Below, piece by piece: positions 5,808 to 34,335 of a stretch of 52,162 nt of DNA. Each line of letters begins with the position of its first letter. Within the stretch, counting starts at the first letter, position 1. The notes beneath the pieces were generated by a model. The model made no database searches. It saw only the letters and a program-made list of their open reading frames with translations, and was not told the DNA's origin. A program made the translations under genes and the position numbers. Source of the stretch: Parcubacteria group bacterium (lineage in GTDB: Bacteria > Patescibacteriota > Minisyncoccia > Phycocordibacterales > DATDWN01); contig JBEBJP010000001.1 in assembly GCA_040079825.1 (NCBI GenBank), forward strand, positions 1 through 52,162, written 5' to 3'.

Positions 5808-5809
5808 AC

Positions 5810-5839: not shown

Positions 5840-5902
5840 GCGCGTAGAAGCTAAGAGATGGACTCTTGGCACACAATCCGCGCGATGCCTATAAGGAGGC
5901 AC

Positions 5903-6244
5903 ATGATGGAAAGGAAGCTCTCTCACGTTCTGCTCGACCTCGGACTCTTCTGTGCGCTCGGTACAACCGAGCGCAGTGGTGTGGAACTGAAGTTGGTGAA
6001 GAAGGGTATGCCCTACACCACAGACACCAACAACGGTGTCTCAGTGGTGTACGACGAGGCCGGAAGGCCCTGGGTCATGAGACTCCAGGAAGCAGGCTCG
6101 CTCGGCTACCCCGGCAAGGAGATCCAGGCCTGCCTGGACGAGAACGGAAAAGAGCTCAAGCGGGGGGCTTACGTCCCCCACTCAAACGACGGCGGACACT
6201 TCATGCGAGAGGTCCTCCCGATGATCCTCCGCAGTGTGGGGTGA
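5903..6244 (+). CDS. Hypothetical protein (113 aa), GC-rich foreign-looking cassette
   Basis: SD AAGGAGG at 5893-5899 precedes ATGATG. There is a strong G/C third-position bias in this frame. Its own promoter and a terminator-like hairpin plus T-run (~6281-6316) flank it. I recognised no family. Confidence 0.55.
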   Translation: MMERKLSHVLLDLGLFCALGTTERSGVELKLVKKGMPYTTDTNNGVSVVYDEAGRPWVMRLQEAGSLGYPGKEIQACLDENGKELKRGAYVPHSNDGGHFMREVLPMILRSVG

Positions 6245-6343
6245 ACAATTAAGAGTTTATCGTTCTGTATACTGAACGGTCCGCCCCTAGCTCGAAGAGT
6301 TGAGGGCGTTTTCTTTTTAACAAACTTTTTTTAAGATATAATA

Positions 6344-7525
6344 TTGTACATGGATAAACTATTAGTACCTTTTAGACAAGGTAAATTATTGAATACTCTT
6401 TTTTTAGCAAATATTTTTATATCTCTTCATTACGCACTTATTGTTTATGTGAACTCTTCTTTTCTAAGTAACTTTTTCTCTGAAACCCAAGTATCCGCTC
6501 TTTATATAATGGGAGCAGTTATGGAAATAATCCTCCTTATCAACGCTTCAAAGATTCTCCAAAAACTAGGAAGTTATAAATTTATAACCCTAACCATAAT
6601 ACTCGAACTTCTCTCCCTGGTAGGAATACTTTCAACAACTAGCAGTTTTTTTGTTAGTTTTTATTTTTTGATACATATTTTTTCAGTCTCACTCATTGCA
6701 TTTAACATGGATGTTTTTATTGAAGCTATTTCTCAAAATGAAGAAAGTACAGGAGGCATAAGAGGTTCGTATCTAACTCTAAGCAACATAGCTTTTGTTC
6801 TGTCGCCACTTATAGTTGCGTTTATCGTCACAGATAGCGACTATACTTTTGTTTACTTGTTGTCTGCAACACTACTTATTCCCCTATTCTCTCTAATGAA
6901 AAAACTAAAAAAAGTTTCTCCTCCAAATATAAAACACATAGATGTGAGACAAACCATATCAGAATATACAAAGGACAAGGACCTGTACAACATATTCTTT
7001 TGTCAGTTCACTCTGCAGATGTTTTATTCCTACATGATTATCTATGTTCCAATATATCTCAAAAACAATATCGGTTTCTCGTGGGAAGAAATAGGTATTA
7101 TGTTTACCATAATGTTACTACCTTTTGTTTTATTTGAACTACCTGTTGGAGAGCTAGAAGATATGAAATATGGTGAAAAGGAATTCCTAACAGGTGGATT
7201 TGCAATAATGAGTATGGCAACTGTTTTTATAAGTTTTGTAACAGTCAAAGTATTTTGGATCTGGGCTTTTATTTTGTTCGTATCCAGAATCGGGGCAAGT
7301 TTGGTAGAAATAAGTACCGAAAGTTATTTCTTTAAACATGTTGATAAAGATAAAACGGATATTATCAGCTTCTTTCGCATTACGCGCCCTCTTTCCTATA
7401 TTGTAACTCCAGTACTCGCAACTATAGCCTTACAGTTTATGCCCTTCCAATATATTTTTATAGTTATTGGAGGAATAGTTATTATTGGAGCACACTACTC
7501 TATGGACCTCAGGGATACGAAGTAG
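6344..7525 (+). CDS. MFS-type transporter (about 12 TM helices)
   Basis: 393 aa and hydrophobic throughout, with a central loop. The start is TTG at 6344 or ATG at 6350. Confidence 0.65.
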   Translation: MYMDKLLVPFRQGKLLNTLFLANIFISLHYALIVYVNSSFLSNFFSETQVSALYIMGAVMEIILLINASKILQKLGSYKFITLTIILELLSLVGILSTTSSFFVSFYFLIHIFSVSLIAFNMDVFIEAISQNEESTGGIRGSYLTLSNIAFVLSPLIVAFIVTDSDYTFVYLLSATLLIPLFSLMKKLKKVSPPNIKHIDVRQTISEYTKDKDLYNIFFCQFTLQMFYSYMIIYVPIYLKNNIGFSWEEIGIMFTIMLLPFVLFELPVGELEDMKYGEKEFLTGGFAIMSMATVFISFVTVKVFWIWAFILFVSRIGASLVEISTESYFFKHVDKDKTDIISFFRITRPLSYIVTPVLATIALQFMPFQYIFIVIGGIVIIGAHYSMDLRDTK

Positions 7526-12829: not shown

Positions 12830-14814
12830 TATTTTTTCTTACTTTTAACCTTAGCTTTTGTTTTCTTAACTTTAGATTTAACCTTTTTCTTTTCAGCCAC
12901 TTTAGATTTTTTCTTAACTTCTTTCTTCGCCTTCACTTCTTCCAAGTGGTATGGTTTAACATCACCAGTTTGCAAATATTTCAAAAGTTTTGAAAGTGGT
13001 GTTTTTGCAACACAACAGTATTTATCTCCACCACCATAGTAAACATACAAATCATCTCCTCGAATCAAAGCTCCGGAAGCGTAAACCACTCCAGGCTTAC
13101 TGTCGTTTTCATAATGCATATCAGGAGAAAGAAGGGGGTGATCACTTCTATACAAAATCTTTGTTGGATCGTTCTTATCCAAAATCATTGCTCCTAGTCT
13201 GTATTTGTCTTCACTATGTTTTTCCAAAGCGTGATAAAGAAGAAGCCATCCAAGCGAAGTCTTTAGAGGTGGTGGTCCAGAACCTTTTAACAAGTGGTCC
13301 CAAGAATCTTTTCTTCCGTGTTGTGGACCCTCAGGTCTGGGACTATAGATAATATCATCAAAAGTATCTAGATCATCAACATAATCCACCAAAACTCTTG
13401 GGCTAATACTATGCAACACAGCAAACTTTCCATTTATTTTTTCTGGAAAGATAAGCCAGTTTTTACTTCTGTTTTTCGGTGAAGAGATAAGTTTTGGTTT
13501 TTTCCATGTCCACCTACCAGCCTTAAAATCCTCCAAACTTATCGAGGTCAAAGCCATTCTCATAGAATTCCATCCTTCGAAAGCTGTGTAGACCATATAA
13601 ACCCTATCACCTATCACAACAGCCCTAGGGTCTTCTGCTCCACCCCAACTACCACCAGAAACATACATGTAGGGGTTATAAGATAAAGGTCCAGGAATAG
13701 TATCTGGATTTGGCATACCATAGTTCCTAGAAGCCTCGTAAACAGGATACGGGAGTCTACCAGATATATTTACACCATCCTTGCTCTTTGCGTAACCAAC
13801 TCTAGATATTCCATCTCCACCAACAGCACGATACAGAACATGAATATCTCCCTCGTCGTCCTCAACAACAGCTGGATTAAATGTTCCTTCATTTTCCCAA
13901 ACACTACCTCTTATAGGTTCAATTATTGGATTACTTTCATGTCTCTCCATAATTTTCGGATGTCTTCTAAAATCCTCTGCTTCTTTATAAAGTGAAGGAA
14001 TCTTGATAACTATCAGATCATTTTCATGAGTCACCCAATACAACATCAAGTGGTTATGCATATTTGCAAAACCTAGCGGTTTTATTGGCCTTGTTTCATC
14101 TTTTGAATCAACTACTCCTTGCCATATAGGCAAGTTACTTCTCCAAATTACTCTTCGAGGGTCATTCATACCAAACACAACTCCACCCATCTGAATTAAA
14201 GTTTTGGAACCCTGCTCAGAAGACGCGTCGTATAAAATAAGTATTCCATCGTTAGTTATTGTTCCACCAATAATAGTTATATTTTCAGAATCAAAATATC
14301 CTACTCTAGAAGTAAAAGTTAGAGATTGTTTTTCCTTCCATACAGAAAGAGAAATAGACGCTTGGTTTCTTATAAACAAACCGTCACGATACATTTCAAA
14401 CCTGTCTTTTGCTTTATCGTATACAACCGTTGCATGTTTAGAATCATTTGCAGGAAGTTCGGATTTGATTTCCCAATCATACAAATCTTTGGACCTTGCA
14501 ACGATAAGTTTTTCCTTTGTTCTTAGTCCGGCTTTTCTAAAATAAGTCATCACAAAACCATTTGGTGTTTTAGAGATAGAAAAGTTATAACAATCTTTTA
14601 TGTTTTCTGTTTTTCTGCTTATAGTTTTTATACCAACCTTTCCTGGATCAACTATAAAATCTACCCCGTTTGTACTCCAAGAAAGGAAAAGTGTGCTTGT
14701 TGATTTGTTCTCTATTTTTTGTAACAAAATTACTCCTGGAGGAACAGAAACCACAGCGAGAGGTATCCCATCTGCTTTGTTTATTTTTTGTGTTTTTGAG
14801 GTACTTTTTTTCAT
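12829..14814 (-). CDS. GH130/DUF377-domain protein with N-terminal extra domain and ~40-aa Lys-rich C-terminal tail
   Basis: 661 aa. The C-terminal half has a GH130 pattern (TFNPAVV...LYRAVGGDGISRVGYA...GAEDPRAVVIGDRVYMVYTAF). The tail reads EVKAKKEVKKKSKVAEKKKVKSKVKKTKAKVKSKKK. Confidence 0.7.
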   Translation of the reverse strand: MKKSTSKTQKINKADGIPLAVVSVPPGVILLQKIENKSTSTLFLSWSTNGVDFIVDPGKVGIKTISRKTENIKDCYNFSISKTPNGFVMTYFRKAGLRTKEKLIVARSKDLYDWEIKSELPANDSKHATVVYDKAKDRFEMYRDGLFIRNQASISLSVWKEKQSLTFTSRVGYFDSENITIIGGTITNDGILILYDASSEQGSKTLIQMGGVVFGMNDPRRVIWRSNLPIWQGVVDSKDETRPIKPLGFANMHNHLMLYWVTHENDLIVIKIPSLYKEAEDFRRHPKIMERHESNPIIEPIRGSVWENEGTFNPAVVEDDEGDIHVLYRAVGGDGISRVGYAKSKDGVNISGRLPYPVYEASRNYGMPNPDTIPGPLSYNPYMYVSGGSWGGAEDPRAVVIGDRVYMVYTAFEGWNSMRMALTSISLEDFKAGRWTWKKPKLISSPKNRSKNWLIFPEKINGKFAVLHSISPRVLVDYVDDLDTFDDIIYSPRPEGPQHGRKDSWDHLLKGSGPPPLKTSLGWLLLYHALEKHSEDKYRLGAMILDKNDPTKILYRSDHPLLSPDMHYENDSKPGVVYASGALIRGDDLYVYYGGGDKYCCVAKTPLSKLLKYLQTGDVKPYHLEEVKAKKEVKKKSKVAEKKKVKSKVKKTKAKVKSKKK

Positions 14815-14829
14815 TCTGAAACAAACTTA

Positions 14830-15168
14830 TTACCTGTTGTACTTGTCTTCCAACCTAACTATATCTTCTTCATCAAACTCACCCTTTGCTATTTCAAGAA
14901 TAACCACTTCATCTACTGGTGCACCTATTCTGTGTTTTACAGTTACACCTACAAAAAATTCATCTCCTTCTTTGGCTATGTGAGTTTCTTCCCCTATTAC
15001 TATCTCTGGATTACCTTTAATAACCTTCCAAAACTCTTCTCTATTATTGTGAAATTGTAAACTCAACTGTTCGCCTTGTTTTACATTTATTAATTTTACT
15101 GTCGAAGATTCATTCAGCGTATAACGAGTAAATGACCCCCAAGGTCTTGTTGTGGTAATCGGATTCAT
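14830..15168 (-). CDS. Cupin-type mannose-6-phosphate isomerase (ManC C-terminal-like)
   Basis: 112 aa: RPWGSF...LSLQFHNNREEFWKVIKG...VKHRIGAP...EDIVRLEDKYNR, matching the type II PMI cupin pattern. Confidence 0.7.
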   Translation of the reverse strand: MNPITTTRPWGSFTRYTLNESSTVKLINVKQGEQLSLQFHNNREEFWKVIKGNPEIVIGEETHIAKEGDEFFVGVTVKHRIGAPVDEVVILEIAKGEFDEEDIVRLEDKYNR

Positions 15169-19756: not shown

Positions 19757-19911
19757 TATAATCCTATCATTATTTCAATTTTTTTGGTAAAAAAATGGCC
19801 ACCCGCACGACGAGGCGTAGGTGACCATTCTCCAATTTGGAGCAAATTTTGTCTTGCAAATTAAGAAGAACTTGCCGTGGCTGGGACCACGGCCGAAGAG
19901 GAGGGGTAGAG

Positions 19912-20208
19912 CTAGACGAACGCGACCTTGGCTTTCTCGAGCTCCTGCTTCACCTGTCGCATCTTTACAGAAGCGCACAGTGAGCAGTCGGGGGTCCACG
20001 GGAATTCGTAGAGCCTGCCTGGCGAGATTCGATTCGTACACTCGCCGTTCTGGCACTCTCCGTAAGTGCCGTTAGAAATGCGACCCAAAGCTTCGTTGAC
20101 TGCCCGAAGCTTCTTGCGATCGGCATCCGAAAGCGACATCTGTGCCGCCTTCGCATCAAGATCCGTCTTGATCCCTCTCAAGACGGTAGCCCGGTGGTGA
20201 AGTGTCAT
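19912..20208 (-). CDS. TraR/DksA-family C4 zinc-finger protein (GC-rich cassette 2)
   Basis: 98 aa: GECQNGEC-x-RISPGRL-x9-CSLC matches the TraR/DksA C4 finger pattern. GC-rich third positions. A hairpin plus T-run lies downstream on the minus strand (~19785-19830). Confidence 0.7.
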   Translation of the reverse strand: MTLHHRATVLRGIKTDLDAKAAQMSLSDADRKKLRAVNEALGRISNGTYGECQNGECTNRISPGRLYEFPWTPDCSLCASVKMRQVKQELEKAKVAFV

Positions 20209-20304
20209 ACGACTACCCCTACGAGACTCTTTCGTTGAACAAACGAACCAATATTTAGTGTTACATCTGTATAAATAAATGTCAAGTAAATAGACTAAAA
20301 ATAA

Positions 20305-20344
20305 AACAAAAAACCACTATTTTGGATTAGTGGTTTTTTGTTTT
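20305..20344. terminator. Bidirectional terminator-like hairpin
   Basis: Stem AACCACTA (20312-20319) / TAGTGGTT (20328-20335), flanked by an A-run and a T-run. Confidence 0.6.
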
Positions 20345-20426
20345 AAACAATCCTTTTATTTTCATGCCTATATTCTTCAATTGCTCGAGTCCAAGCCATA
20401 CGCAAAAATATTTACAATATTTTTTT

Positions 20427-20642
20427 GCTGTGTTTCTTGAATGAAGTTAGAACTTTTTTCCAAAATAATTCTAACTCTGACTAATGAATTCCGTCACGGC
20501 TCGGCATCCGTTCCAGAACACGCTGGGAGCGTGTTCCTCCACTTCTGCCGACCCGCTCCGCCCTCGCCTCGCCACCGTATTCATTCTAGGTTTTTTGGCG
20601 CGACTTCCTTTTTGATTTGGTATGTCGGTGGCGGTCTCGGGC
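20427..20642 (+). repeat. Inverted repeat IR-A, left copy (216 bp)
   Basis: Exact reverse complement of 30057-30272 wherever I compared. Spurious ORFs 20441..20707 and 30031..30258 translate identically for 67 aa. Confidence 0.9.
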
Positions 20643-21175
20643 GGGTTTCTCTTGAAAGAGAAACTGACGGAATTCACTCGGTGACGGACGTTTGCTGTGC
20701 TTCCTAGATTTTATCATAACGGCTCATATCGTGGTATGTGAGCCGTTCACTTGTTGTCTCGTGCTTATTTCTCGCTAGTGGCAGTCCGTGGGTGCAACCC
20801 TCGGCATCCGCCTCGGGCATTTCCGCTAGGGCTACGAGCGCCTAGATTGCTAGGAGTTCTGCTTATTCCTCGCTTCGCTCGGAATGCAGAACATCTGTTT
20901 GGGGGAAGGAAGGAATCCTTCCCCCAGCTTCGCCTCGGTTCGTGCGTCCGCTTCGCGGCGCATTCCGCAGAGCGGAACAGGGCTCACCCCACCCGGCTCG
21001 CACAACCCCCTTTCTCGTTTTCATATTCATGTTCGTAGTGTCGCTTCCGATTTGACTGGAAAAGACTTTGAAAACGGCGGCGCTCGTCAGATACCGGACG
21101 CCCTAGCGGAAATGCCCGAGGCTGCATCTTGTGTGTTTGACCCACCCTCCCAGTTCGCACACACATTTTGCTCCC
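20485..21175 (+). ncRNA. Candidate large structured RNA (unclassified), GC-rich and ORF-poor
   Basis: Nested perfect helices: 20811-20832/21100-21121 (22 bp), 20485-20496/20665-20676 (12 bp). Hairpins at 20516-20536, 20718-20747, 20856-20892 and 20901-20925. Only R/P/A-rich shadow ORFs are present. The strand call is based on a single T-G wobble, so it is tentative. Confidence 0.45.
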
Positions 21176-21625
21176 TTAGATTTTTGAATACGAAACTCCT
21201 TTTCCAGTTTTACCACTTTGCTTTATTTTATTTTCTTTCTCCAGTATTTCTAGGTATCGTGTTGCTGTTGCGTCAGATACACGCAAAAACTTTTCTACTT
21301 CATCGTTGGTTATATTTGTTCGCTTCGCGAACAAAGTCATGATGTGATCGAGTTTCTTTCTTTTTCGAGTTTGGATTGCAAATCGTGCTTTGTTCAGCAA
21401 ATCTCTTGCGAGATTTGGTTTAGGAGACACAGGCTCCGCCTGTGTAGGAGAAGATGCAGGAGCAGAATCGGTTTCGACCGATTCGGGTTCGGGTTCAACT
21501 TGTTTCGTTTCCGAAACAGATTCAGAAACTAACGGCTCACTTGGTGGTACTTGAGCCGTTTGAGGTTGTGGTTCGATTGGAGCTTCTGATGAGATGTCTA
21601 TATTTGGAGCTATTTCGTCACTCAT
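21176..21625 (-). CDS. Acidic/Pro-rich protein with C-terminal winged-helix DNA-binding domain (candidate regulator)
   Basis: 149 aa. The C-terminus ITNDEVEKFLRVSDATATRYLEILEKENKIKQSGKTGKGVSY is wHTH-like. The ATG lies 6 nt after a TATAAT box, so the mRNA is probably leaderless. Confidence 0.6.
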   Translation of the reverse strand: MSDEIAPNIDISSEAPIEPQPQTAQVPPSEPLVSESVSETKQVEPEPESVETDSAPASSPTQAEPVSPKPNLARDLLNKARFAIQTRKRKKLDHIMTLFAKRTNITNDEVEKFLRVSDATATRYLEILEKENKIKQSGKTGKGVSYSKI

Positions 21626-21629
21626 CTAA

Positions 21630-21716
21630 ATATTATATACCAAACGGCTCATTTGGTAAGCCGTATTTTCAGCGTTTTTGACTTGACAAAGAGAGTGAAG
21701 TGTGCTAAGATAGATA
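21630..21716. promoter_or_regulatory. Divergent promoter/operator module, copy 1
   Basis: Rightward: TTGACA 21683-21688, 17 nt, TAAGAT 21706-21711. Leftward: TTACCA (21655-21660 rc), 16 nt, TATAAT (21632-21637 rc). The palindrome ACCAAA-N7-TTTGGT lies at 21639-21657. The module is near-identical to 24087-24170. Confidence 0.7.
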
Positions 21717-21769
21717 ACAGAGGGGAGGCGTTACGCCAAACCCAACAGTTTCGCCCATAGGAGGGCACC

Positions 21770-22423
21770 ATGCAGAACATTCTGATCATTGAAGACACCC
21801 TGAAGCACCAAGCGGCGGCGCGAGCACAGTTTCCGGAGGCAGTTGTCGTCAACTACGACGAAGCCTACGAGCTCCTGCGCGACGCACGTCACGGCGACTA
21901 CTCGGCGATCCTCACGGACCTCCACTTCAAGACGGAGAGGAACAGGATCATCCCGGCCATGCCCTTCGGCCCGCAATTCGAGCGGAACGACGGGGCGATC
22001 GGCAAGGAGTTCCCGTTCGGCCTCTGCTTCGCGCTGAAAGGCGTCGAGCTCGGGATTCCGGTCGTGATCGTCAGCGACGCCGACCATCACTCCGACATGG
22101 TCACCGCCATGCTGGATATGATGGGTTTCCTCGTTCAACCACGCGGTGGCAAGGACGAGAAGCGACACTTCATCAAAGGTGGAGGACGTGGTCCCGAGTC
22201 GTTCAGCTGGGAGAATCGGGTTCAGAATCCCCGGTTGATCAGCAAGATGTCCAACTGTCCGAAGGCGGAGGACATGCACTGGAACGGCGACGAGATCGTG
22301 TCCGCACCCCCGGTGAAGCCGGAACCGTACACCGAGCAGGGTTGGAAAACCTACGCGAACAGTCAGGTGAAAGACTGGCGCGAGGCACACCGGCTTCTCT
22401 CTGCTGTCATGGCCGAGTCGTAG
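21770..22423 (+). CDS. Receiver (REC)-like domain protein with unknown C-terminal half (GC-rich cassette 3)
   Basis: 217 aa. SD AGGAGGG. NILIIEDT...AILTDLHF...VVIVSD resembles a CheY-like fold. Strong G/C third-position bias. The antisense ORF 21731..22390 is a shadow. Confidence 0.6.
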   Translation: MQNILIIEDTLKHQAAARAQFPEAVVVNYDEAYELLRDARHGDYSAILTDLHFKTERNRIIPAMPFGPQFERNDGAIGKEFPFGLCFALKGVELGIPVVIVSDADHHSDMVTAMLDMMGFLVQPRGGKDEKRHFIKGGGRGPESFSWENRVQNPRLISKMSNCPKAEDMHWNGDEIVSAPPVKPEPYTEQGWKTYANSQVKDWREAHRLLSAVMAES

Positions 22424-22488
22424 TACAAAAGGATTCGTGCTCTTCTCCTTAAAAGAGAGCTCCTAGCAGTGGTGGTCAACTGTAGTGG

Positions 22489-22516
22489 CGTCACGATATT
22501 ATCGTGGCGTTTTTTG
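22489..22516 (+). terminator. Terminator of cassette 3
   Basis: Stem CGTCACGA/TCGTGGCG (8 bp, one G-U), loop TATTA, then TTTTTT. Confidence 0.7.
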
Positions 22517-22521
22517 TTTAT

Positions 22522-23553
22522 TTATTTTTGATTTCCCAAGATATAACCCTCAAACTTTTTTGCCAAATCATACACAGTATTTTTTGCTGGTGAATCAGGA
22601 CAGTTTTCTAGAAAACTAAGAATGTTGTCTGTGTATTCCGTGTGTGTAAATTTAGGTAAGTTGTTTTCTCCTGTAAAAGCTCCAATGAATTTAACTAAAT
22701 GAGATTTAAAATCAGCTAATTTAATCATTTTTCCTCCATCGGAAATATGTTTCAGTTTCTCATAGTATTCTTTTACCTGTTCTCCTTTGTAATCTTTTGG
22801 ATGAGATACTTCATCTACCATATCTGCCACTCTTTTTCCAAAAATTCTTTCTATTTGCTCATATGTAGCAGAAGTATCTTCAAGAGTGTCGTGAAGAAGT
22901 CCGGCAATTAAAACTTCTTCATCCTCTATTCCAAACTCTTCTTTAAGAATCTGGCATACTTCCAGAAAATGATTTCCAGTTTCTATTTCAGCAAATTTTT
23001 TACTTGCGAATTTCTTTGCTAGTTCAATTGGATTTTCTACTGTCTCCTTAGTAACATCCTCAAAGTTATACTCTTTCATTTCTAAAGCTCTTTTCATGAG
23101 ATGATCGCCAATCTCACCCCATTTGATATATTCTTTATAATCTTTTGGATCAATTAGTTTTATTTCTAAAATATCTCCATCTGGATCTTTCTCAAATTCT
23201 CCATATGGTTTAACAATACAAAACATCCTAAATTGTCTTGCTATCCCATTTCCATATGACACTTCTACATCTTGATATCCAATACATTCAATATGAAGAA
23301 CTTTCATGTTCGATTCTTCTTTTATTTCCCGTATAGCGGCTTCAGTATATGTTTCTCCTTTCTCAATAGCTCCACCTGGGGGAGTCCAGTTGTTATCTGC
23401 TCCGTGACCGACAATGACTAGTTTGTCTCCATAGAAACAATACGAATGAACACCATCCTTTGTCTCATCAGGAGTTTCTAATTCGGGAACTCCGTCAGTA
23501 TAAGTGACTTTATAAGTTTTTCCTCTATGATCAAATTGAGTTTTTATTTGCAT
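22522..23553 (-). CDS. Nudix hydrolase fused to SpoT/RelA-type HD phosphohydrolase domain
   Basis: 343 aa. Nudix box [23 protein letters not shown]. The HD motif LLHDTLEDT lies in the C-terminal half. The gene overlaps the upstream rdgB-like gene by 23 nt. Confidence 0.8.
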
Positions 23554-24271: not shown

Positions 24272-24604
24272 ATGACCAATACAGCACAGAGAGAACTCGT
24301 TGCGGGTCCATCACGTGAAGAACTCTTCGACGCACTTCGGCTTCGGCACGAAGGACGCAAGGTCACCTTCACAGTGGCTCCGTCACACATCACTGGCCGA
24401 GTACTTGCTGGAGGACGAAGGTTCGTTCCCGGCAACCTGGCCTTCCATGTTCACGTGATCGAACTCGGCAACGAGAACGATGGCAACGGTACCAACTGGC
24501 TGTTCAAACTCTACGACGAGCACGCTGTTCTCGGCTCGATGTACCTCGAAGGATACATCAATCTCACGACTCGCAAGGGTTACGTGAGACCCGCCACGAA
24601 CTAG
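24272..24604 (+). CDS. Hypothetical protein (110 aa), GC-rich cassette 4
   Basis: SD AGGAGG lies 6 nt upstream of the ATG. It has a coding-like G/C third-position bias, its own promoter and a strong terminator. No family recognised. Confidence 0.55.
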   Translation: MTNTAQRELVAGPSREELFDALRLRHEGRKVTFTVAPSHITGRVLAGGRRFVPGNLAFHVHVIELGNENDGNGTNWLFKLYDEHAVLGSMYLEGYINLTTRKGYVRPATN

Positions 24605-25844: not shown

Positions 25845-28076
25845 TTATCTCAAATCTAAAAATTTCCAATCTTTAAGATTATTCGGGTTGTATTCGTATT
25901 TCAACTTATCATGATAACGCCAACTATTTTTTTCTTTCAGTACAATCCCACCATATAATTTTTTACCTTTCTTGTTTTGCTCTGTAATATATTTTGCTAG
26001 TCCTTCGGCTCGTGATTTTGCTGTTTCAGCAGTAAGTCCTCCTTTCGTATCAAACAAACCAACATGACCTCCTTTTTGCATTACAACAAAATCAACATAA
26101 AACGGCTTCTCAACTCCATGCTCAATATGAGGTACAGCAAAATAAGAACCGTCTTTTGTCCCATTTTTAAACCACCATTCAACTGATTTTGATTTTTCTA
26201 AAAATTCTATGAAATCAACTTCAAGTTGACTATCCTCAAACAAATCTTCTGTTGCTGTTCCAGATTTTCTTGTGTAATAAGGTTGTATTATTGATTTTTT
26301 GTAATCTTTCTTTGCAAAAGATAAGGTATAGTTTATTACTTTCGGTACGTTCCATGGCTCTTCATTTTTTAGTAACTCATTTTTACCTTTTCCAACTTCT
26401 TCTTGGTACATCTCTTTTGCAAGATTGATAGTGTTAGTCATTATTTGTTGATTTTCTTCTGCAAGAACAGCGGCTTGAATCTTCGGCCATTCATCTTCGT
26501 TTCGTGATGCTTCGAAAAATGAATATATTGAGCTTTTTATACGACCGATTGAGCGTTGTTCTGGTGCGAATGGCGCAAGATTATTTCGAGCAAACATATC
26601 AAATGCGTTCTGCAATTCAACTTCGTTTTTAGGAATATCGAGTGTTCCTTTTTTCTCAATATTTTTTGATTCCTTGTCAGCGTCAGTGATCCGACCACTT
26701 GCGATTAAACTTGTTTTCAGAATGCTGTGTTTAAACGAAAATTTTTCCTTTAATTTCAATTTTTTACCAGCTTCAATAAAAAGAGGGGTGAAATCAGATG
26801 AAAGTCGTGTCTCCTCACGGAAGCGTTTTGAGTGGTAAGATAACAAATCAAGATTTTTATAATTCTTTATCCTAAGTCCTGTAAAAGTCGTAATGTAATC
26901 ACGCGACAAATCCTCTGCGACATTTATATCCTGCAAACTCGTAAATACATAGCCAACATTCAAGTCTTGATCGGCGTAATGTTTCTGTTCGGGCATACGC
27001 ATTATGCGCCCAAGTGTTTGGATAGAGAAAGTGATATTTTCTTCACGCCATTGTCTAAACAAAACCAAAATTGTCGCACGAGGACAATCCCAGCCAAGCG
27101 AAATTGCTTGCTTAAATATCATCACATCAACTTCGTTTTCGTTTTTCTCAATATTTGCTAGATTTATTTTATTATCCTTATCAGAGAGATATATCGCGAG
27201 TCGTCCATTTTCTGTTGTGTAACCAAATTTCTTGAGCAAAGCGATAATCTCATCCTTTTTATCGGATACTCCCTGCATGGCATCCGGTAATTGAATAAGT
27301 AAAAGAGGATTTACACTCGAGCCTTCGGCTTCGAGTTTTTTATGTAATTCAATTCGCTTTTTTAACGCACTTTCAAGCACGAGTTCGTCTGCCGATTTAT
27401 CGCTTTTCTTTTTATCAATAATGTAATGCTCAAAGCCCGGATTTATAATAATCTCTTTCTTGATCATCTCCTCATCCTTTACATCTTTGAGTTCCACCTC
27501 CACGATTCTATTTGCTCCAAGTTGTGGAGTTGCTGAAACTTCAATCGTAATTTTTGGTCCAATATCCTGTATTAGTTCCTTTGATTTTTCACTATTTGCT
27601 GTGTGATGACTTTCATCAATAATAAGAAAAATCATTCTGCCCTCATCTTTTGTGCGAGCAATAACACTCGTCAAATTATTATCTCGTTCGTTTGCGCGCA
27701 CATAAAGATTGTCTTTTTTATTGATACTTGCCCAGTTCAAGAATAAAATCTCATTTTCGCTAATCTTGCGGTCATCTAAATCTTCAAAATACGAACATTT
27801 TATCCCTACGCCGTTTTGGTCATAGTATTTTCTTAAATTGTTCCTGCTCTGGTCGTGTAATTTATTTACAGCAATCCATATAAACGAAAATTTTTTACTA
27901 TCTATACGAGAATCAATTAAACGCTTCAAAAACTCTGCCATCATCAGAGTTTTACCAGAACCAGTGGGTGCTTTAAAAATACAAACTTTACTTCCGTCTG
28001 TATCTAATAGTTCGTTGATTTCTCGTTTCAACTTTACGACTGCATTTTCTTGATAATTTTTGAATTCAAATATCAT
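25845..28076 (-). CDS. res: Type III restriction enzyme Res subunit (SF2 helicase-nuclease)
   Basis: 743 aa with helicase motif I KAPTGSGKT and motif II IIDESHH. It lies immediately downstream of mod. Confidence 0.85.
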   Translation of the reverse strand: MIFEFKNYQENAVVKLKREINELLDTDGSKVCIFKAPTGSGKTLMMAEFLKRLIDSRIDSKKFSFIWIAVNKLHDQSRNNLRKYYDQNGVGIKCSYFEDLDDRKISENEILFLNWASINKKDNLYVRANERDNNLTSVIARTKDEGRMIFLIIDESHHTANSEKSKELIQDIGPKITIEVSATPQLGANRIVEVELKDVKDEEMIKKEIIINPGFEHYIIDKKKSDKSADELVLESALKKRIELHKKLEAEGSSVNPLLLIQLPDAMQGVSDKKDEIIALLKKFGYTTENGRLAIYLSDKDNKINLANIEKNENEVDVMIFKQAISLGWDCPRATILVLFRQWREENITFSIQTLGRIMRMPEQKHYADQDLNVGYVFTSLQDINVAEDLSRDYITTFTGLRIKNYKNLDLLSYHSKRFREETRLSSDFTPLFIEAGKKLKLKEKFSFKHSILKTSLIASGRITDADKESKNIEKKGTLDIPKNEVELQNAFDMFARNNLAPFAPEQRSIGRIKSSIYSFFEASRNEDEWPKIQAAVLAEENQQIMTNTINLAKEMYQEEVGKGKNELLKNEEPWNVPKVINYTLSFAKKDYKKSIIQPYYTRKSGTATEDLFEDSQLEVDFIEFLEKSKSVEWWFKNGTKDGSYFAVPHIEHGVEKPFYVDFVVMQKGGHVGLFDTKGGLTAETAKSRAEGLAKYITEQNKKGKKLYGGIVLKEKNSWRYHDKLKYEYNPNNLKDWKFLDLR

Positions 28077-28077
28077 A

Positions 28078-29790
28078 TTATTTAAAAATTTCCCGATACA
28101 CTTTCAATATTACCTCTGGTATTGCACAAAGCGTTACCTTATCCTTAACATCAACAAATTTCTTTGCGTGCGGGTCATCACCCATAGAAAAAACATAAGT
28201 GTTGAAATGCCCATTAATTTTTTTAATTGCTTTTTTATAGTCCTCTATTGATTCCTCATAGAAAATGACTCCGACATATTTATCAGTATTTTTGAAAATC
28301 TTGAATTCGTCTGTTTCTTGTATAAGCTCAAAAGCATTTTCCAAAATACAAAGCATATCAGCCGATTCTTTAACTAATTTTCTTTTATTTTTATCTGTCG
28401 GCTCAGCCTCGACAAAATCAGTAGTGTAATATTTCAGATTTCCACCAAGTCCCTCTTCCATATCTCCCTTAGTTTTCTTGTATCCCTTAATTGATTTTTT
28501 AATTCTTGGGTAGCAAATATCAGAAGCAATTTTGTGTTCAGATTTTTCGTCACCATTATTTGTACATAATATAAAAGACCTTTTTCCTCCATCTTCTTTA
28601 TTTAAAGCAAGCACAGCTTGTCCAGTTGTTCCTGAGCCAGCCATAAAGTCTAAGACAACAGCATTTTTATCTCCAATTAACTGAAGTATCTGTTTAATTA
28701 AACGAGTCGGTTTTGGTGTAGAAAAAAGTTCATCAGACTGCTCGAAAAAGTCCTTTAATTCTTTTTTTGCCTCATCGGTGTGTCCTGCTTGTTCATGTAG
28801 AAATATAGTAGACGCCTTTCGTCCTTGTTGCACTTCATCTAAAAATTGCTTGAGGGACGGGAAGGCATTTCCATTTTTACCAAAATAAAGTCTATTATCT
28901 TTTTGTAATTCAAGCATGTTGTCTTGTGCGTAAGACCAATGTTTACCACTAGGAGCATTAAATTTATCTCCCTTTGGTCCCGTTATAATGTAATGTCCAT
29001 TTTTTCGCTCCTCATTTGCGACTATATCACCTGGCTTCCAGACTCCGCGTGGGTCATTATCAGGATTTTTATAACGAGCGTTCATTTTATCTGTTCTAGG
29101 TAAGAGTTGAACATTAAGATGTTCTATATTTTTTGCATAGACCAAAATGTATTCGTGATCAACAGAAATGTGGCGTGATTGATTCTTTGGACTATATGCT
29201 CTTTGCCAAATTATTGTAGATACAAAATTTTGTTCTCCAAAAATTTCATCACAAAGCATTTTTAATGGTGCTTGTTCGTTATCATCAATACTTATAAAAA
29301 TTGCGCCCATTTCTTTTAAAATAAATCGGGAAAGTTTTAATCGCTTCTCCATAAAAGAAAGCCATTTACTGTGTCTGAAACTATCCTCTTTGTCTACAAA
29401 CTTATCATTATAGATAAAATCGTTATTACCTGTATTATAAGGCGGATCAATGTATATCAAATCTACAGCTTCGCGGTGTGTGAAATTAAGAACAGCAAGA
29501 GAATGATAATTGTCACCTTCAATCAAAAGATTAACGAGTTTTGATTTATCAGATTCAATGGCTTTCCCTTTAACTTCTTTTAAAACAGGAAATGGCTTAC
29601 CCGCCATTTCGTTGGGGAATAGTTCATTTGGAGTTCGTGCGTCAGGATTAACGAGAATATCAATTTTTTCTTCAGGTAAATCACGATGCCAAACAAGCCC
29701 ATATGTCGTGCTTTTAATTTTTACAATCTCCTTGATCAATTCCTCCTTTGACCAAGCATCATATTCTTTTCCGTTTATCTTTTTTGACAT
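28078..29790 (-). CDS. mod: Type III R-M Mod DNA methyltransferase (N6-A/N4-C class)
   Basis: 570 aa with catalytic motif IYIDPPYNTGN and the AdoMet motif LDFMAGSGTTGQA in beta-class order. Confidence 0.9.
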   Translation of the reverse strand: MSKKINGKEYDAWSKEELIKEIVKIKSTTYGLVWHRDLPEEKIDILVNPDARTPNELFPNEMAGKPFPVLKEVKGKAIESDKSKLVNLLIEGDNYHSLAVLNFTHREAVDLIYIDPPYNTGNNDFIYNDKFVDKEDSFRHSKWLSFMEKRLKLSRFILKEMGAIFISIDDNEQAPLKMLCDEIFGEQNFVSTIIWQRAYSPKNQSRHISVDHEYILVYAKNIEHLNVQLLPRTDKMNARYKNPDNDPRGVWKPGDIVANEERKNGHYIITGPKGDKFNAPSGKHWSYAQDNMLELQKDNRLYFGKNGNAFPSLKQFLDEVQQGRKASTIFLHEQAGHTDEAKKELKDFFEQSDELFSTPKPTRLIKQILQLIGDKNAVVLDFMAGSGTTGQAVLALNKEDGGKRSFILCTNNGDEKSEHKIASDICYPRIKKSIKGYKKTKGDMEEGLGGNLKYYTTDFVEAEPTDKNKRKLVKESADMLCILENAFELIQETDEFKIFKNTDKYVGVIFYEESIEDYKKAIKKINGHFNTYVFSMGDDPHAKKFVDVKDKVTLCAIPEVILKVYREIFK

Positions 29791-29792: not shown

Positions 29793-29999
29793 TTATTTCA
29801 AAAGTTCGTCAGTTGAAACTCCTAGAGATTTTGCAATTTTGGAGATAGTTGAGAGTGTTGGGTTTGTTTTTCCGTTTTCAATAGTACTGATAAAACCGCG
29901 ACTAAGTCCTAACTCCCGAGCAATATCGCCCTGCGATATTGCCTTTTTTGTCCTAATTCTTTTCAGATTTAGCCCTAACTTTGCCGACTCATTTTTCAT
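29793..29999 (-). CDS. XRE-family HTH protein (controller C-protein-like)
   Basis: 68 aa: LKRIRTKKAISQGDIARELGLSRGFISTIENGKTNPTLSTISKIAKSLG. It is the first gene of the mod-res operon. Confidence 0.85.
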   Translation of the reverse strand: MKNESAKLGLNLKRIRTKKAISQGDIARELGLSRGFISTIENGKTNPTLSTISKIAKSLGVSTDELLK

Positions 30000-30056: not shown

Positions 30057-30272
30057 GCCCGAGACCGCCACCGACATACCAAATCAAAAAGGAAGTCGCG
30101 CCAAAAAACCTAGAATGAATACGGTGGCGAGGCGAGGGCGGAGCGGGTCGGCAGAAGTGGAGGAACACGCTCCCAGCGTGTTCTGGAACGGATGCCGAGC
30201 CGTGACGGAATTCATTAGTCAGAGTTAGAATTATTTTGGAAAAAAGTTCTAACTTCATTCAAGAAACACAGC
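30057..30272 (-). repeat. Inverted repeat IR-A, right copy (216 bp)
   Basis: Reverse complement of 20427-20642. Its outer end overlaps IR-B by 2 nt. Confidence 0.9.
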
Positions 30273-30485: not shown

Positions 30486-32030
30486 ATGTCTAACAACAAA
30501 TTCTTTCTCTATGCTCGTAAATCTACGGACGAACCTGATCGTCAGATATTAAGTATTGAGTCGCAGATTGATGAGCTGAAAGAATTTGCTGTGCGAGAGC
30601 AATTGGAAATTGTTGAAACTTTTATTGAGTCACAAACCGCCAAAGAACCTGGTCGTCCCATTTTCAACAATATGCTCTCGCTCATGGAAAAAGGTAAGGC
30701 TTCGGGAATTTTGGCGTGGCATCCCGATCGTTTGGCGAGAAATAGTGTTGATGGTGGAAAAATTATTTATTTATGTGATATCGGTAAAATTTTGGAGCTA
30801 AAATTCCCGACGTTTTGGTTTGATTCCACTCCTCAAGGTAAGTTTATGTTAAATATCGCTTTTGGGCAGAGCAAATACTATGTGGACAATCTTTCAGAGA
30901 ATGTAAAACGTGGCTTGAGAACAAAAGTGAGGCGAGGCGAACAGTCCGGTCAAGCTCCGACAGGATATTTGAACGATATGATAAACAAAAAGATGCTTCC
31001 CGATCCGGAACGGTTTCGCCTCGTCAGACGGATGTTTGAACTCTACGCCACAGGGAATTATTCTCTGAAAGCTGTCCGTGATTTGCTCGCCCAAAAAGGC
31101 TTGGTATCTAAAAGTGGTAAAGTTCTCTCTATTTCAAACACACAAATGATATTGAGTAATCCGTTTTATTATGGAATGTTTGTATTTAACAAGGAACTTT
31201 ACCAAGGAAAGCACGAGCCAGCGATTTCAAAGAAACTTTTTGATGCGTGTCACGAGATAATGCTACGAAACGCTCATCCGATGAAGCGAGGAATTAACCA
31301 GCATGTCTTTCGCGGACTTTTGAAATGTGCAGAATGTGGTTGTGGTATTACAAGCGAAGTGAAGAAAGGTCATATCTACTATCGCTGTACTAAAAAGAGA
31401 GATGTCTGCACACAACCGTATGTCCGCGAAGAATCCCTCGCAACACAGATGAGTGACACAATCAAAAAAGTTTCTTTGTCGTCAGAGTGGAAGGATTGGT
31501 TGCTCGCTGAACTAGACAAGGAACAAGCGAGCACCTTCCACTCAGACGCCCTTTTCGTTCAAAATCTGAAAAATCAGATAATTAAGGTTGAGGAGTTGTT
31601 AGAGAAGCTTTTAGACGCTCATTTGGACAGTACAATATCGAGTGGGGAATACGTCGCGAAAAAGCAAAAGCTCCTCAACCAAAAAGTTGATTTTTCAGAG
31701 AAACTTAAGGATTTTGAACGAAAAGGCAATCGTTGGCTCGAACTTTCTAAACAATTTATTTTAGACTGTAACCAAGCCGTAATTATTGCTTCCGGAGAAA
31801 ATCTCGAAGAGAAAAGAGATTTTCTCAAAAAGATTGGCTCGAACCCCACCGTGGCGAATCGAATTCTGGTTTCAGATTTCAAAATGCCTTGGCGGATTCC
31901 GGCGGATTGCCGATTTGCGTCACTGCGTGACGCTCCGGATTTTACTCACTTTTCTAAATTGCACTCAGGGCTGCCAGACTTGGACTCGAACCAAGATACA
32001 CGCCTCCAGAGGGCGCGGTCCTACCATTAG
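30486..32030 (+). CDS. Large serine recombinase (resolvase domain + recombinase domain + zinc ribbon + coiled coil); true 3' end uncertain
   Basis: FLYARKSTDEPDRQILSIESQ carries the catalytic Ser region. A zinc ribbon is present (CAECGCGITSE...YYRC). From about aa 452 the frame runs through IR-B and stops inside tRNA-Gln. Confidence 0.85.
   Translation: MSNNKFFLYARKSTDEPDRQILSIESQIDELKEFAVREQLEIVETFIESQTAKEPGRPIFNNMLSLMEKGKASGILAWHPDRLARNSVDGGKIIYLCDIGKILELKFPTFWFDSTPQGKFMLNIAFGQSKYYVDNLSENVKRGLRTKVRRGEQSGQAPTGYLNDMINKKMLPDPERFRLVRRMFELYATGNYSLKAVRDLLAQKGLVSKSGKVLSISNTQMILSNPFYYGMFVFNKELYQGKHEPAISKKLFDACHEIMLRNAHPMKRGINQHVFRGLLKCAECGCGITSEVKKGHIYYRCTKKRDVCTQPYVREESLATQMSDTIKKVSLSSEWKDWLLAELDKEQASTFHSDALFVQNLKNQIIKVEELLEKLLDAHLDSTISSGEYVAKKQKLLNQKVDFSEKLKDFERKGNRWLELSKQFILDCNQAVIIASGENLEEKRDFLKKIGSNPTVANRILVSDFKMPWRIPADCRFASLRDAPDFTHFSKLHSGLPDLDSNQDTRLQRARSYH
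31841..31971 (-). repeat. Inverted repeat IR-B, right copy
   Basis: See the left copy. Its outer end is the discriminator base of tRNA-Gln. Confidence 0.9.
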
Positions 32031-32041
32031 ACGATCTGGCA
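31971..32041 (-). tRNA. tRNA-Gln (anticodon CTG)
   Basis: Hand-folded cloverleaf: TGCCAGA TC GTCT AATGGTA GGAC C GCGCC CTCTGGA GGCGT GTAT CTTGG TTCGAGT CCAAG TCTGGCA G. It has U1-A72 and G73, as in Gln tRNAs. Confidence 0.85.
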
Positions 32042-32180
32042 ATGAGTAAAAGATACTCTAAAATAGAGCTTTTTACAAGAAGAATATTGGGTGAAAACCA
32101 AGACTACTTATTCTTCTTTGGCTTCTTCTTTTCTTTTCTATGTGTTTCACCTTTTGACATAACTTTATTATAATACAAAA

Positions 32181-32676: not shown

Positions 32677-34335
32677 TTATTTATCTTTATTTTTTAAACA
32701 AGCCTCAACAAAAGCTGTAAACAAAGGATGTGGGTTCATCGGTCTAGCTTTTAATTCTGGATGAAACTGAGTTCCCAAGAAAAAAGGATGCACTGATTTT
32801 GGTAGCTCAGCTATTTCCATAAGCTTTTCGTCTGGGGATGTGCCAGAGAAAATCAACCCCGCCTTTTTTATTTCTTCAACATACTCAGGATTAACTTCAT
32901 ATCTATGACGATGTCTTTCGGAAATGCTTGATGCTTTATATGAATTTTTTGCAATAGTTCCGTCTTTTAGCTTCGCGGTGTATGCACCAAGTCTCATAGT
33001 AGCTCCGTAGTTTCCGTTCTCCAAGTTTTGCTTCTGGTCTGGCATTATATCTATAACAACGTGAGATGACTTAGGATTTATTTCTGCTGTATGTGCATCC
33101 TTCCAACCAATAACATTTCTGCAATACTCTATAACTGCAAGTTGCATTCCATAACAAAGTCCTAGATAAGGTATCTTGTTCCGACGAGCGTATTCGATTG
33201 TCATTATTACTCCTTCTATCCCACTCTCACCGAACCCACCAGGGACAATTATCCCATCAAACTTAGAAAGCTCGCTAATCTTCTCTGGATTTTTTTCATA
33301 ATCTTTTGAATTTATCCAAGTTAGGTTTGTGGTCGAATCCTTCCAGTATGAAGAAAACTTTACCGCTTCAATCACAGAAACGTACGCGTCCGAAAGTGTG
33401 TACTCGCCAGTATCAAAATATTTTCCTACAACAGCAATGTCTAGAACTTTCTTAGCATTTCTTCTTTTATCTACAAATTTTTTCCAGTCTTCTATTTCAC
33501 TGTTGTTAGATTTTTTTCTCATGTGAAGAGTTTTCAATATAACAGAGCTTATCTTGTCTCTTTCAAAGTTTAATGGAACATCGTATATACTCTTTATATC
33601 TGGAGCAGATATCACATTTTCTGGTTTTATAGCACAAGACACAGCTATCTTCTCTTTTCTTTTTTGATCTAGTGGTTCTGGACCACGAGCTATTATTATA
33701 TCTGGCTGAACTCCATATGAGTTAAGTTGTCTAACAGCATTTTGGGTTGGTCTGGTTTTCATCTCACCCAAAGACCCTGGAACAGGAAGGTAGGACACCA
33801 TCACAAACATCACATCATTTGGATGTTTTATCTTTAGAACTCTAGCAGCTTCGATAAAAAGTATATTCTGATAATCTCCTATAGTTCCACCTATTTCTAT
33901 AAGCGAGATGTCCGACTCGTGATGATCTGCGCATTTCTTCCACCTACGAACAATCTCGTCTGTTATATGGGGTATGGCCTCTACACACTTACCACGATAA
34001 CCCAGATTACGCTCCTTCTCTATAACATGTTTGTAGACCATACCTGAGGTCATATAGTTTTCAGAAATCAAATCCATCTCAAGAAATCTCTCATAGTTAC
34101 CCATATCCTGATCGGTTTCAAGTCCAGAATCCAAAACAAACACTTCTCCATGTTCTGTGGGATTCATAGTACCAGCATCAACATTTAAATAAGGGTCAAC
34201 CTTTATTGGATTGACCTTGAAACCTTTGCTTTGAAGAATCTTACCTATTGAAGACGACGCAATCCCCTTACCAACTCCTGACATTACCCCTCCTAAAACG
34301 AATATATATTTCTGATTTTTATTTTTCATAATCAA
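32677..34335 (-). CDS. pyrG: CTP synthase
   Basis: 552 aa. N-terminal GGVMSGVGKGI synthetase domain and a C-terminal GATase domain (GLCYGMQ, HRHRYEVN). Confidence 0.95.
   Translation of the reverse strand: MIMKNKNQKYIFVLGGVMSGVGKGIASSSIGKILQSKGFKVNPIKVDPYLNVDAGTMNPTEHGEVFVLDSGLETDQDMGNYERFLEMDLISENYMTSGMVYKHVIEKERNLGYRGKCVEAIPHITDEIVRRWKKCADHHESDISLIEIGGTIGDYQNILFIEAARVLKIKHPNDVMFVMVSYLPVPGSLGEMKTRPTQNAVRQLNSYGVQPDIIIARGPEPLDQKRKEKIAVSCAIKPENVISAPDIKSIYDVPLNFERDKISSVILKTLHMRKKSNNSEIEDWKKFVDKRRNAKKVLDIAVVGKYFDTGEYTLSDAYVSVIEAVKFSSYWKDSTTNLTWINSKDYEKNPEKISELSKFDGIIVPGGFGESGIEGVIMTIEYARRNKIPYLGLCYGMQLAVIEYCRNVIGWKDAHTAEINPKSSHVVIDIMPDQKQNLENGNYGATMRLGAYTAKLKDGTIAKNSYKASSISERHRHRYEVNPEYVEEIKKAGLIFSGTSPDEKLMEIAELPKSVHPFFLGTQFHPELKARPMNPHPLFTAFVEACLKNKDK

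Follow-up and report, generated by a model that had tools for sequence, protein, structure and literature searches.

A candidate family of large structured RNAs, flanked by a winged-helix gene and bordering variable gene islands, in Patescibacteria

The stretch of DNA analysed here (hereafter, the window) comprises 52,162 nucleotides (nt) of contig JBEBJP010000001.1 from a Parcubacteria group bacterium. At ~20473-21170 of its plus strand lies an element of about 700 nt, rich in potential helices. It faces, tail-to-tail, a gene encoding a small winged helix-turn-helix (wHTH) protein, and its 5' part recurs, inverted, on the other side of a segment of cargo genes, beside a gene for a large serine recombinase (LSR). 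The original prediction, made from the letters of the window, proposed that the region encodes an unclassified large structured RNA. The proposal is supported by about 100 loci in Patescibacteria, by compensatory base changes, by the absence of any Rfam 15 match and by the lack of conservation of the reading frames. We are confident that a conserved structured RNA family absent from Rfam is present here. It is also likely that the whole of ~20473-21170 is one member of an uncatalogued, two-domain family of non-coding RNAs of ~700 nt, specific to Patescibacteria and found mainly in Parcubacteria/Paceibacteria.

The GC content of the region reaches 0.48-0.68 in 100-nt windows (20500-21199), against ~0.29-0.38 over most of the window, so that the GC-rich stretch in AT-rich surroundings pointed out initially is readily confirmed. 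The pairings proposed for the window were also found in place, namely the 12-nt perfect pairing 20485-20496/20665-20676, the hairpins 20516-20536, 20856-20892, 20901-20925 and 20718-20747, and the bipartite helix 20558-20577/20625-20644. The long pairing said to span 22 nt is indeed perfect, but its actual length is 23 nt (20810-20832/21100-21122); no equivalent perfect match is expected in shuffled sequences.

From the fold of the window, the folds of homologs and the compensatory variants described below, the 5' domain (20485-20676) forms a four-way junction. Its closing helix (20485-96/20665-76) carries the three branches S2 (~20498-20555, with a tip hairpin at 20516-36), S3, a long stem with a conserved apical loop (20558-20644), and S4 (20645-64). 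An inter-domain linker (20677-20789) follows, containing the sequence GTGACGG (20681-87), a hairpin with a recurring motif (20718-47) and a degenerate copy of one arm of helix H1 (~20758-85). The sequences CCGTCAC (20491-97) and GTGACGG, proposed as alternative partners, are both present; this pair was met again in one close relative only, L032 (L numbers designate homologous loci). The 3' domain (20790-21170) opens with a conserved lead-in, CCCTCGGCATCCG (20797-809), and is closed by the 23-bp helix H1 (20810-32/21100-22). Inside H1 are found helix H2 (20838-42/21079-83), the hairpins P3 (20856-92) and P4 (20901-25), a variable P5 region (20927-96) and the conserved blocks CTCGCACAACCCCC (20997-21010) and GTGTCGCTTCCG (21038-49). 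A 3' hairpin (21131-64), followed by UUUU (21166-69), ends the domain. Like the rest of the RNA, all these features are given on the plus strand. Several strongly conserved sequence blocks sit outside the tested helices. In the window and in sequences closely related to it, the proposed helix 20937-46/20999-21007 is plausible; in other lineages, a differently built stem occupies this place.

The 691 nt of the region fold far better than dinucleotide shuffles (z = -7.7 for the plus strand and -8.2 for the minus strand). Because both strands fold equally well, folding energy cannot separate an RNA from palindromy at the DNA level. Comparative evidence is therefore needed, and the comparison supports most of the helices.

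Homologs were collected by scanning one genome per GTDB species with an 18-mer taken from helix H1. By our own arithmetic, assuming uniform composition, ~17 matches to an 18-mer are expected by chance in 596 Gb. The scan returned 100 loci, 98 of which belong to metagenome-assembled genomes (MAGs) of the candidate phyla radiation (CPR), or Patescibacteria. They include Nomura-, Kaiser-, Taylor-, Zambryski-, Yonath- and Vogelbacteria, Paceibacterota/Minisyncoccia and MAGs labelled Saccharibacteria. The two remaining matches, in Mycobacterium and Bradyrhizobium, were discarded, the element being absent there. In many loci, the 18-mer is found on both strands, 280-400 nt apart. Seven further loci were recruited through the wHTH protein and not through the 18-mer. 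Using blastn, 20790-21165 was found conserved in ~80 loci, next to the wHTH gene, with a left end 90-100% identical and an interior ~70-78% identical. Conservation runs ~360 nt farther upstream and ends at ~20430, at a promoter-like block; the 5' domain recognized in the original prediction is therefore part of the same conserved unit. The length of the 3' domain varies between 280 and 500 nt among homologs because the stem tips carry different insertions.

The family was also sought outside cellular genomes. A link to phages or phage metagenomes had been envisaged; it was not borne out, since scanning the viral contigs of IMG/VR with the 18-mer gave nothing. Viral contigs scanned with the wHTH protein and with a GC-rich 217-amino-acid (aa) protein of the window gave nothing either, and "distant" blastn searches against phage and plasmid collections returned no match. 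In a few MAGs, two or three contigs bear the element. Many MAG contigs end at most ~50 nt from the conserved sequence with which the 3' domain begins (L004, L010, L018, L029, L034, L054, L058, L061, L066, L100 and others), and most wHTH homologs are found on contigs of ~1 kb. The element probably breaks metagenome assemblies, ~60 nt being near-identical across co-occurring species, and this breakage is a possible reason for the lack of annotation so far.

Global alignments (MAFFT/L-INS-i with RNAalifold) recovered the invariant helices only, because stem tips differ in length. Anchor-segmented folding and a covariance model were therefore used instead. In the former, 52 homologs were cut at conserved anchors and each variable segment was folded separately; the latter, R1, combines the stems P3 and P4 (115 positions, 29 pairs). 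A search with R1 gave exactly one full-length match per locus in 85 loci, the window match covering 20827-20927 with a score of 79.8 bits. Segment folding shows that the base of P3 varies in almost every lineage and yet always pairs, as in GTTCTGC/GCAGAAC, GCGGGCAA/TTGCCCGC, ATCCTGC/GCAGGAT, GCGCTGC/GCAGCGC and ATGCCGC/GCGGCAT. The P4 and P5 hairpins likewise have lineage-specific sequences with pairing kept. In the R1 alignment, 96.1% of the cells are paired, against 74.4±0.7% in shuffles. Double changes amount to 372 cells, a number reached by none of 500 shuffles (103.5±7.8), and affect 22 of the 29 pairs. When the partners are slid by 1-3 columns, pairing drops to 50-63% and the covariation score falls from 0.344 to 0.03-0.08. 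As measured on a model-fitted alignment with a phylogeny-unaware test, the structure is kept through compensatory changes across diverged homologs.

Outside R1, a CG to UA change is seen in helix H2 in 13-15 sequences. Helix H1 is near-invariant in sequence, including in the seven loci recruited through the protein; one of these, L109, shows a compensatory G-C to A-U change. For the 5' domain, nine diverse homologs were folded independently; the closing helix and the three branches were obtained in eight of them, with z values from -3.9 to -7.7. Each of its helices shows compensatory variants between lineages. The closing helix, for example, reads TGAATTCCGTCA/TGACGGAATTCA in the window, ATTCCGCCA/TGGCGGAAT in L015, GAATTCCGCTT/AAGCGGAATTC in L036 and CGCCGCCC/GGGCGGCG in L068, and the long stem reads CCGCTCCCATTCCTGCCGT/ACGGCAGGAATGGGAGCGG in L102 versus CCGCCCTCGCCTCGCCACCG/CGGTGGCGGTCTCGGGCGG in the window.

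Two further features hint at pairings or contacts beyond the helices described above. The degenerate copy of the H1 5' arm upstream of H1 (~20758-85) has marginal support, counterparts within seven edits being found in 6 of 58 sequences versus none in shuffles; this suggests that an alternative pairing may exist in some lineages. Moreover, the lengths of three runs match one another (4/4/4, 5/5/5 or 6/6/6): the G-run on the 5' side of P4, the C-run on its 3' side and the C-run of the block 21006-16. The match holds in 25 of 33 distinct combinations, two of the 33 being without a scorable block. As this block is parallel to the purine strand of P4, a base triple or another tertiary contact is suggested.

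Known RNA classes, among them GOLLD, ROOL, OLE, HEARO, raiA, RNase P, tmRNA, 6S, SRP and group I/II introns, were searched for with Rfam 15. At the gathering threshold, the whole window yielded four tRNAs only. When 19800-22800 was searched at E<=10, nothing credible appeared in the element, the overlapping matches being eukaryotic lncRNA noise with E>=2. At the gathering threshold, 19 homologous loci gave no match on the element either. This covariance-model check agrees with the earlier failure to match the region to RNase P, tmRNA, SRP, 6S or group I/II cores. RNase P was considered and rejected: L003 contains a genuine class A gene for RNase P (772-1087) as well as the element (6246-6587), and no match of the element to RF00010 was found. 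Near the homologous loci, other Rfam matches were seen, among which a LOOT RNA (L007, 4625-4757) and a SAM riboswitch (L005, 11-117). In a literature search of incomplete coverage, neither the RNA nor the layout of the island described below was found.

It could also be imagined that the region is a decayed GC-rich protein gene, or a miniature inverted-repeat transposable element (MITE) bounded by the 23-bp arms. GC-rich open reading frames (ORFs) of 95-152 aa do overlap it, other GC-rich cassettes of the window are real genes, and the arms make a perfect inverted repeat. The three ORFs reported originally (20751..21038, 20884..21342 and 20984..21166) are present. No credible Pfam match was found for any of the eight internal ORFs; with E values up to 10, a single match, attributable to noise, was obtained. 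The longest open frame shifts between frames and strands among the 52 homologs, and the differences in stem length and the indels are not multiples of three. A coding function is rejected on these grounds. As to a multi-copy MITE, also envisaged at the outset, the arms are paired once in the 52-kb window, which holds no extra copies, and R1 matches once per locus. The interior is conserved and covaries, and the arrangement with the wHTH gene is constant; the 23-bp arms do not represent the ends of a MITE. Both forms of this explanation are already contradicted by the data and have a negligible probability.

The left limit of conservation coincides with a promoter-like motif (20437-20466, plus strand). 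A -35-like TTGAAT (20437-42), the block GTTAGAAC (20446-53) and a -10-like CAAAAT (20461-66) are found there. The block is near-palindromic, with the family consensus G[CT]T[CA]GAAC. In 50 homologs, the spacing between TTGnAC and the conserved block downstream of it is constant, and nAnAAT stands ~17-18 nt downstream of the -35 element. Judging from these motifs, the RNA would start at ~20473, ~12 nt before the closing helix. At the other end, the hairpin 21131-64 and its U-run resemble a terminator on the plus strand only. Additional copies of the 5' module, presented below, are co-directional with the downstream operons in the plus sense only (window, L103 and L108). Transcription of the plus strand thus appears likely, and the strand and extent proposed here for the RNA are probably correct. 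The original prediction had favored the same strand because of a single T-G wobble in the hairpin 20718-47; the support comes instead from the promoter-like motif at the left edge and from the oriented 5' modules.

Alternatively, the element might be transcribed from the minus strand, as a long 3' untranslated region of the wHTH gene or as an RNA co-transcribed downstream of it. The wHTH gene is always directly upstream on that strand, and a strong putative bidirectional terminator is found beyond the element. The latter, at 20302-20345, is a perfect 18-bp stem flanked on both sides by A and T runs, and sits between a GC-rich zinc-finger ORF and the promoter of the RNA. Minimum free energies also favor the minus strand slightly, by a few kcal/mol on average. 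However, the conserved -35/-10-like motif at the far end faces the plus direction, the 5' modules and the terminator-like end are oriented as just described, and the base of P4 is a U·G pair in 28 sequences, which would become C·A on the minus strand. We regard a minus-strand RNA as improbable.

Several points weigh against the overall picture of a single plus-strand RNA. Most loci were recruited by the sequence of the H1 arm and make up a biased sample for this helix. The R1 covariation counts rest on an alignment fitted to the model, their shuffle control takes no account of phylogeny or relatedness, and the formal covariation test covers P3 and P4 only. For the 5' domain, the evidence consists of per-sequence folds and of a poor MAFFT alignment; at least two architectural classes of this domain exist, and the analysis covers one of them, as the regular expressions used for anchoring caught this class only (18 of 58 sequences). 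We infer the strand, the ends and the single-transcript model from sequence features, and in this respect the energy comparison slightly favors the minus strand, as noted above, and the excess of G·U over A·C disappears with one pair left out (19 vs 15). Finally, perfect Watson-Crick helices and long inverted repeats in the DNA also fit a role at the DNA level.

The first of these long repeats, missing from the elements listed in the original prediction, links 20427-20642 to 30057-30272. The two arms are 216 nt long, inverted and 100% identical, and bracket a 9.4-kb cargo segment. Arm A (20427-20642, plus strand) spans the promoter and ~170 nt at the 5' end of the RNA, that is, the 5' strand of the closing helix, S2 and S3. 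Arm A' (30057-30272, minus strand) is a second copy of the promoter and 5' module; it adjoins the LSR gene and points into an array of XRE-HTH, Mod, Res and further genes that ends with the wHTH gene. A complete-looking Type III restriction-modification (R-M) unit lies directly downstream of it on the minus strand, with a 68-aa XRE-type HTH protein (29793-29999), an N6/N4 methylase (28078-29790) and Res (25845-28076). In relatives, an equivalent copy is found beside an LSR gene, ahead of an XRE-HTH-led array. L103 has a 213-nt repeat, 100% identical, with a different cargo, its distal copy (1120-1332) preceding an XRE and helicase array. L108 has a 218-nt repeat, 97% identical (4653-4870/10936-11152), a nested recombinase repeat (2671-2828/4491-4657) and a third copy, in direct orientation (14698-14898), which precedes a 119aa/HAD/MFS operon. 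Copies of the promoter block were detected in nine loci with a hidden Markov model; in L102, L080 and L095, the distal copy is beside an LSR gene, and inward-facing copies also occur in L038 and L068. Within a genome the arms are identical, but identity falls to 87.5% when the window is compared with L103, which shows that the copies evolve in concert. The inverted-repeat layout is real biology and not an assembly artefact.

These copies raise the possibility of two elements instead of one RNA, 20427-20676 being a portable cis-regulatory leader, riboswitch-like or protein-responsive, and 20790-21170 merely a non-coding unit under its control. Indeed, the 5' module stands without a 3' domain ahead of operons in the window (30272->30057), in L103 and in L108 (the third copy), and its apical loops are strongly conserved. 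Nevertheless, the duplicated arm of the window ends at 20642 and leaves out both S4 and the 3' side of the closing helix; the copies are therefore unable to form the full four-way junction. Neither a ligand class nor an expression platform is recognizable. The complete 5' domain is, moreover, joined to the 3' domain through a conserved linker in every locus. A portable leader is a possible but doubtful explanation, which overlaps with the preferred one, a single two-domain RNA, rather than excluding it.

The LSR ORF (30486-32030, plus strand) matches the Pfam domains Resolvase, Recombinase and Zn_ribbon_recom. It is bracketed by a second inverted repeat of 133 nt (30269-30401/31841-31973, 99% identical), the right arm of which is the 3' end of the LSR gene itself. 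The ORF continues through this arm into a tRNA-Gln gene (31968-32042, minus strand). A tRNA-Gln fragment at the left border was considered as a remnant of an attachment (att) site and discarded; the match is limited to 11 nt of the T-arm (TCGAGTCCAAG, 20385-20395, inverted), which is too short. In L060, a group I intron (5712-5941) is found right after an LSR gene. Inverted repeats with an adjacent serine recombinase, as expected for an invertible segment, thus occur in the window, and the layout recurs in L103, L108, L102, L080 and L095. The near-identical contigs L001 and L002, from other samples, stop inside the element and hence are silent on orientation. An inversion between the A arms would be no obvious switch, because the promoter-to-gene junctions would stay the same. 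The pyrG gene (CTP synthase) is located a few kb from the 5' side of the RNA in L107 (14368-16014) and L005 (5807-7417); in the window, it is found beyond the recombinase end (32677-34335). This placement agrees with an inverted or rearranged island in the lineage of the window, but proves neither.

Such an environment leads one to ask whether the element itself acts as DNA, in recombination, replication or transfer, or inversion, through att-like sites or single-strand hairpins, the covariation then reflecting DNA hairpins. The equal folding of both strands, the many perfect Watson-Crick helices and the 23-bp arms, conserved in sequence and not just in pairing, would agree with this idea. So would the repeat arms identical within and diverged between genomes, implying ongoing recombination, the adjacent LSR gene in six loci and the frequent breaks of contigs at the element. 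On the other hand, the element is a ~700-nt assembly of many helices with length-variable stem tips, UNCG-type loops on the plus strand and conserved blocks outside the tested helices. Such a multi-helix architecture is typical of RNA and not of known serine-recombinase sites, which measure ~40-50 bp. The promoter-like motif at the 5' edge also argues against a purely DNA-level element, as do L107 and L109, where the element and the wHTH gene are found without any LSR gene within 10 kb. A DNA-level element has, in our view, a low probability, and a structured RNA is retained as the better account.

The wHTH gene (21176-21625, minus strand; 149 aa) is the sole conserved neighbor of the RNA. Synteny was seen in 39 of 100 loci; the gene is always convergent with the RNA and directly 3' of it, with a gap of a few nt to a few hundred nt. 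The N-terminal half of the protein is disordered; a long helix and a wHTH domain are also present. Pfam gave weak FaeA/HTH_11/MarR matches, and a Foldseek search with an AlphaFold2 model gave weak matches (E ~1e-3) to MarR/ArsR repressors, eS25 and Zalpha. At 90% identity, the family falls into 1710 clusters; nearly all of them lack a name, and most are found on very short contigs.

A motif recurs around this gene and the RNA. The hairpin 20718-47 of the window linker, present as originally described, is no fixed part of the fold but a separate recurring motif, AACGGCTCA-N12-TGAGCCGTT. Among the homologs (e.g. L003, L005, L013, L036 and L099), this motif is located inside the tip of P3 in many cases and in the linker in others. 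It is also found inside the coding sequence of the wHTH gene (21531-60), where it encodes the conserved TAQ..EPL, and, in a shortened form, in two promoter repeats described below (21623-98 and 24080-155). The motif therefore occurs in differing positions and orientations. Its two half-sites of 8-9 bp are spaced by about two helical turns, as would suit a winged-helix protein that binds DNA as a dimer, and by this analogy AACGGCTCA-N12-TGAGCCGTT is probably a candidate binding site of the wHTH protein.

On long contigs, the wHTH gene closes an array of highly variable content that usually runs in the same direction, and housekeeping genes are found beyond the RNA. The arrays include Type III R-M, NUDIX-HD and Ham1 in the window, a helicase, DUF2130 and a methyltransferase in L103, an XRE-HTH and 15 genes in L107, HEPN, RNase III and a sigma factor in L108, and metal-resistance genes in L109. 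The window also contains a 76-nt direct repeat (21623-21698/24080-24155, 92% identical) with a promoter, TTGACA-17-TAAGAT, and a short ACGGCTCA hairpin. Each copy starts where a divergent gene has its start codon and is followed by a GC-rich ORF (21770-22423, 217 aa, and 24272-24604, 110 aa) without a Pfam match. These ORFs have the appearance of inserted cassettes, each provided with a promoter and a terminator of its own. A further GC-rich island (19800-20210, 0.52-0.59 GC) lies just outside the segment bounded by the inverted repeats. It holds a 98-aa ORF (19912-20208, minus strand) with a C4 zinc-finger pattern, DksA/TraR-like by eye, for which Pfam gave nothing at E<=0.01.

The layout of the island resembles several known systems in single features and matches none of them. 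As in Hin/Gin/Cin inversion systems, a serine recombinase is found beside or partly inside inverted-repeat segments, and the LSR gene is flanked by repeats, as hin is. However, the enzyme is here a large serine recombinase of ~500 aa and not a small invertase, the repeats measure 133-218 nt and not ~26 bp, and inversion between the A arms keeps the promoter-gene junctions; the alternative orientation was not observed. Integrons share the recombinase at one end, the promoter module directed into an exchangeable cargo array and the short palindromic motif between cassettes. In contrast with integrons, the enzyme is of the serine type and not a tyrosine IntI, no attI/attC organisation is apparent, many cargo genes possess promoters of their own or are oriented in the opposite direction, and the RNA and the wHTH gene cap the far end. 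Finally, islands anchored in tRNA or transfer-messenger RNA genes also have a conserved RNA gene at one border and a recombinase at the other, where part of the RNA gene is duplicated. Here, however, the 5' end and the promoter are duplicated, in inverted orientation, and not the 3' end as a direct repeat; moreover, the recombinase end in the window adjoins a true tRNA-Gln gene as well.

By combining these observations, a working model can be proposed. The RNA would be transcribed from its own sigma70-like promoter on the plus strand, with a near-palindromic, operator-like block (GTTCGAAC-like) in the promoter spacer, and would terminate at the hairpin and U-run just before the stop codon of the wHTH gene. 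The wHTH protein would bind AACGGCTCA-N12-TGAGCCGTT, tying together the RNA, the cassettes and its own gene. With one and the same promoter/leader in front of both, the RNA and the island operon would, we infer, be co-regulated. The RNA itself might be a regulatory or scaffold RNA of the island, acting within a ribonucleoprotein, rather than a messenger, and the near-invariant 23-bp helix H1 may be a recognition site for a protein or for RNase III. These assignments, that is, binding by the wHTH protein, co-regulation and a regulatory or ribonucleoprotein role, remain tentative, and we give this functional part of the interpretation a rather low probability. Less probable still is a direct involvement of the RNA, or of its DNA, in recombination, cassette turnover or the silencing or activation of cargo, the whole forming a new recombinase-associated platform for gene capture or island maintenance. 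On that rather unlikely view, the RNA and the wHTH gene would cap one end of the island, and the copy of the promoter and 5' domain, together with the LSR gene, the other.

Among known RNAs, the closest comparison is with OLE, GOLLD and ROOL, large "ornate" bacterial non-coding RNAs for which cryo-EM structures are available (PMC12286853). The genes of the dedicated protein partners of OLE, oapA/oapB, are located next to it (PMC7936274). The element of the window is similar to these RNAs in its size class (~600-800 nt), its many helices, its variable tips and strongly conserved loops, and in forming a GC-rich island in an AT-rich genome. Its setting is also similar, since GOLLD and ROOL are tied to variable or mobile regions and OLE to a partner-protein gene. 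Unlike them, it is hosted by Patescibacteria, was not found on viral contigs and has a winged-helix protein as partner; it matches none of the three according to the Rfam 15 covariance models. To our knowledge, nothing comparable to the duplication of promoter and 5' domain as a long inverted repeat around a cargo island is known for OLE, GOLLD or ROOL.

Large intricate bacterial RNAs without known function are rare, OLE, GOLLD, ROOL, HEARO and raiA being the main examples, and each of them opened new biology. The family described here would add a large RNA class that is widespread in Patescibacteria and whose partner protein family, with its 1710 clusters, is itself large. In the tiny genomes of CPR bacteria, 700 nt of conserved non-coding sequence are costly. 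With a fixed protein partner and a promoter/leader that is shared by both ends of an island of defence and cargo genes and stays identical there, the RNA may bear on the ways in which CPR bacteria gain and regulate accessory genes, a question of which the LSR gene, bracketed by its own inverted repeat, would also be part.

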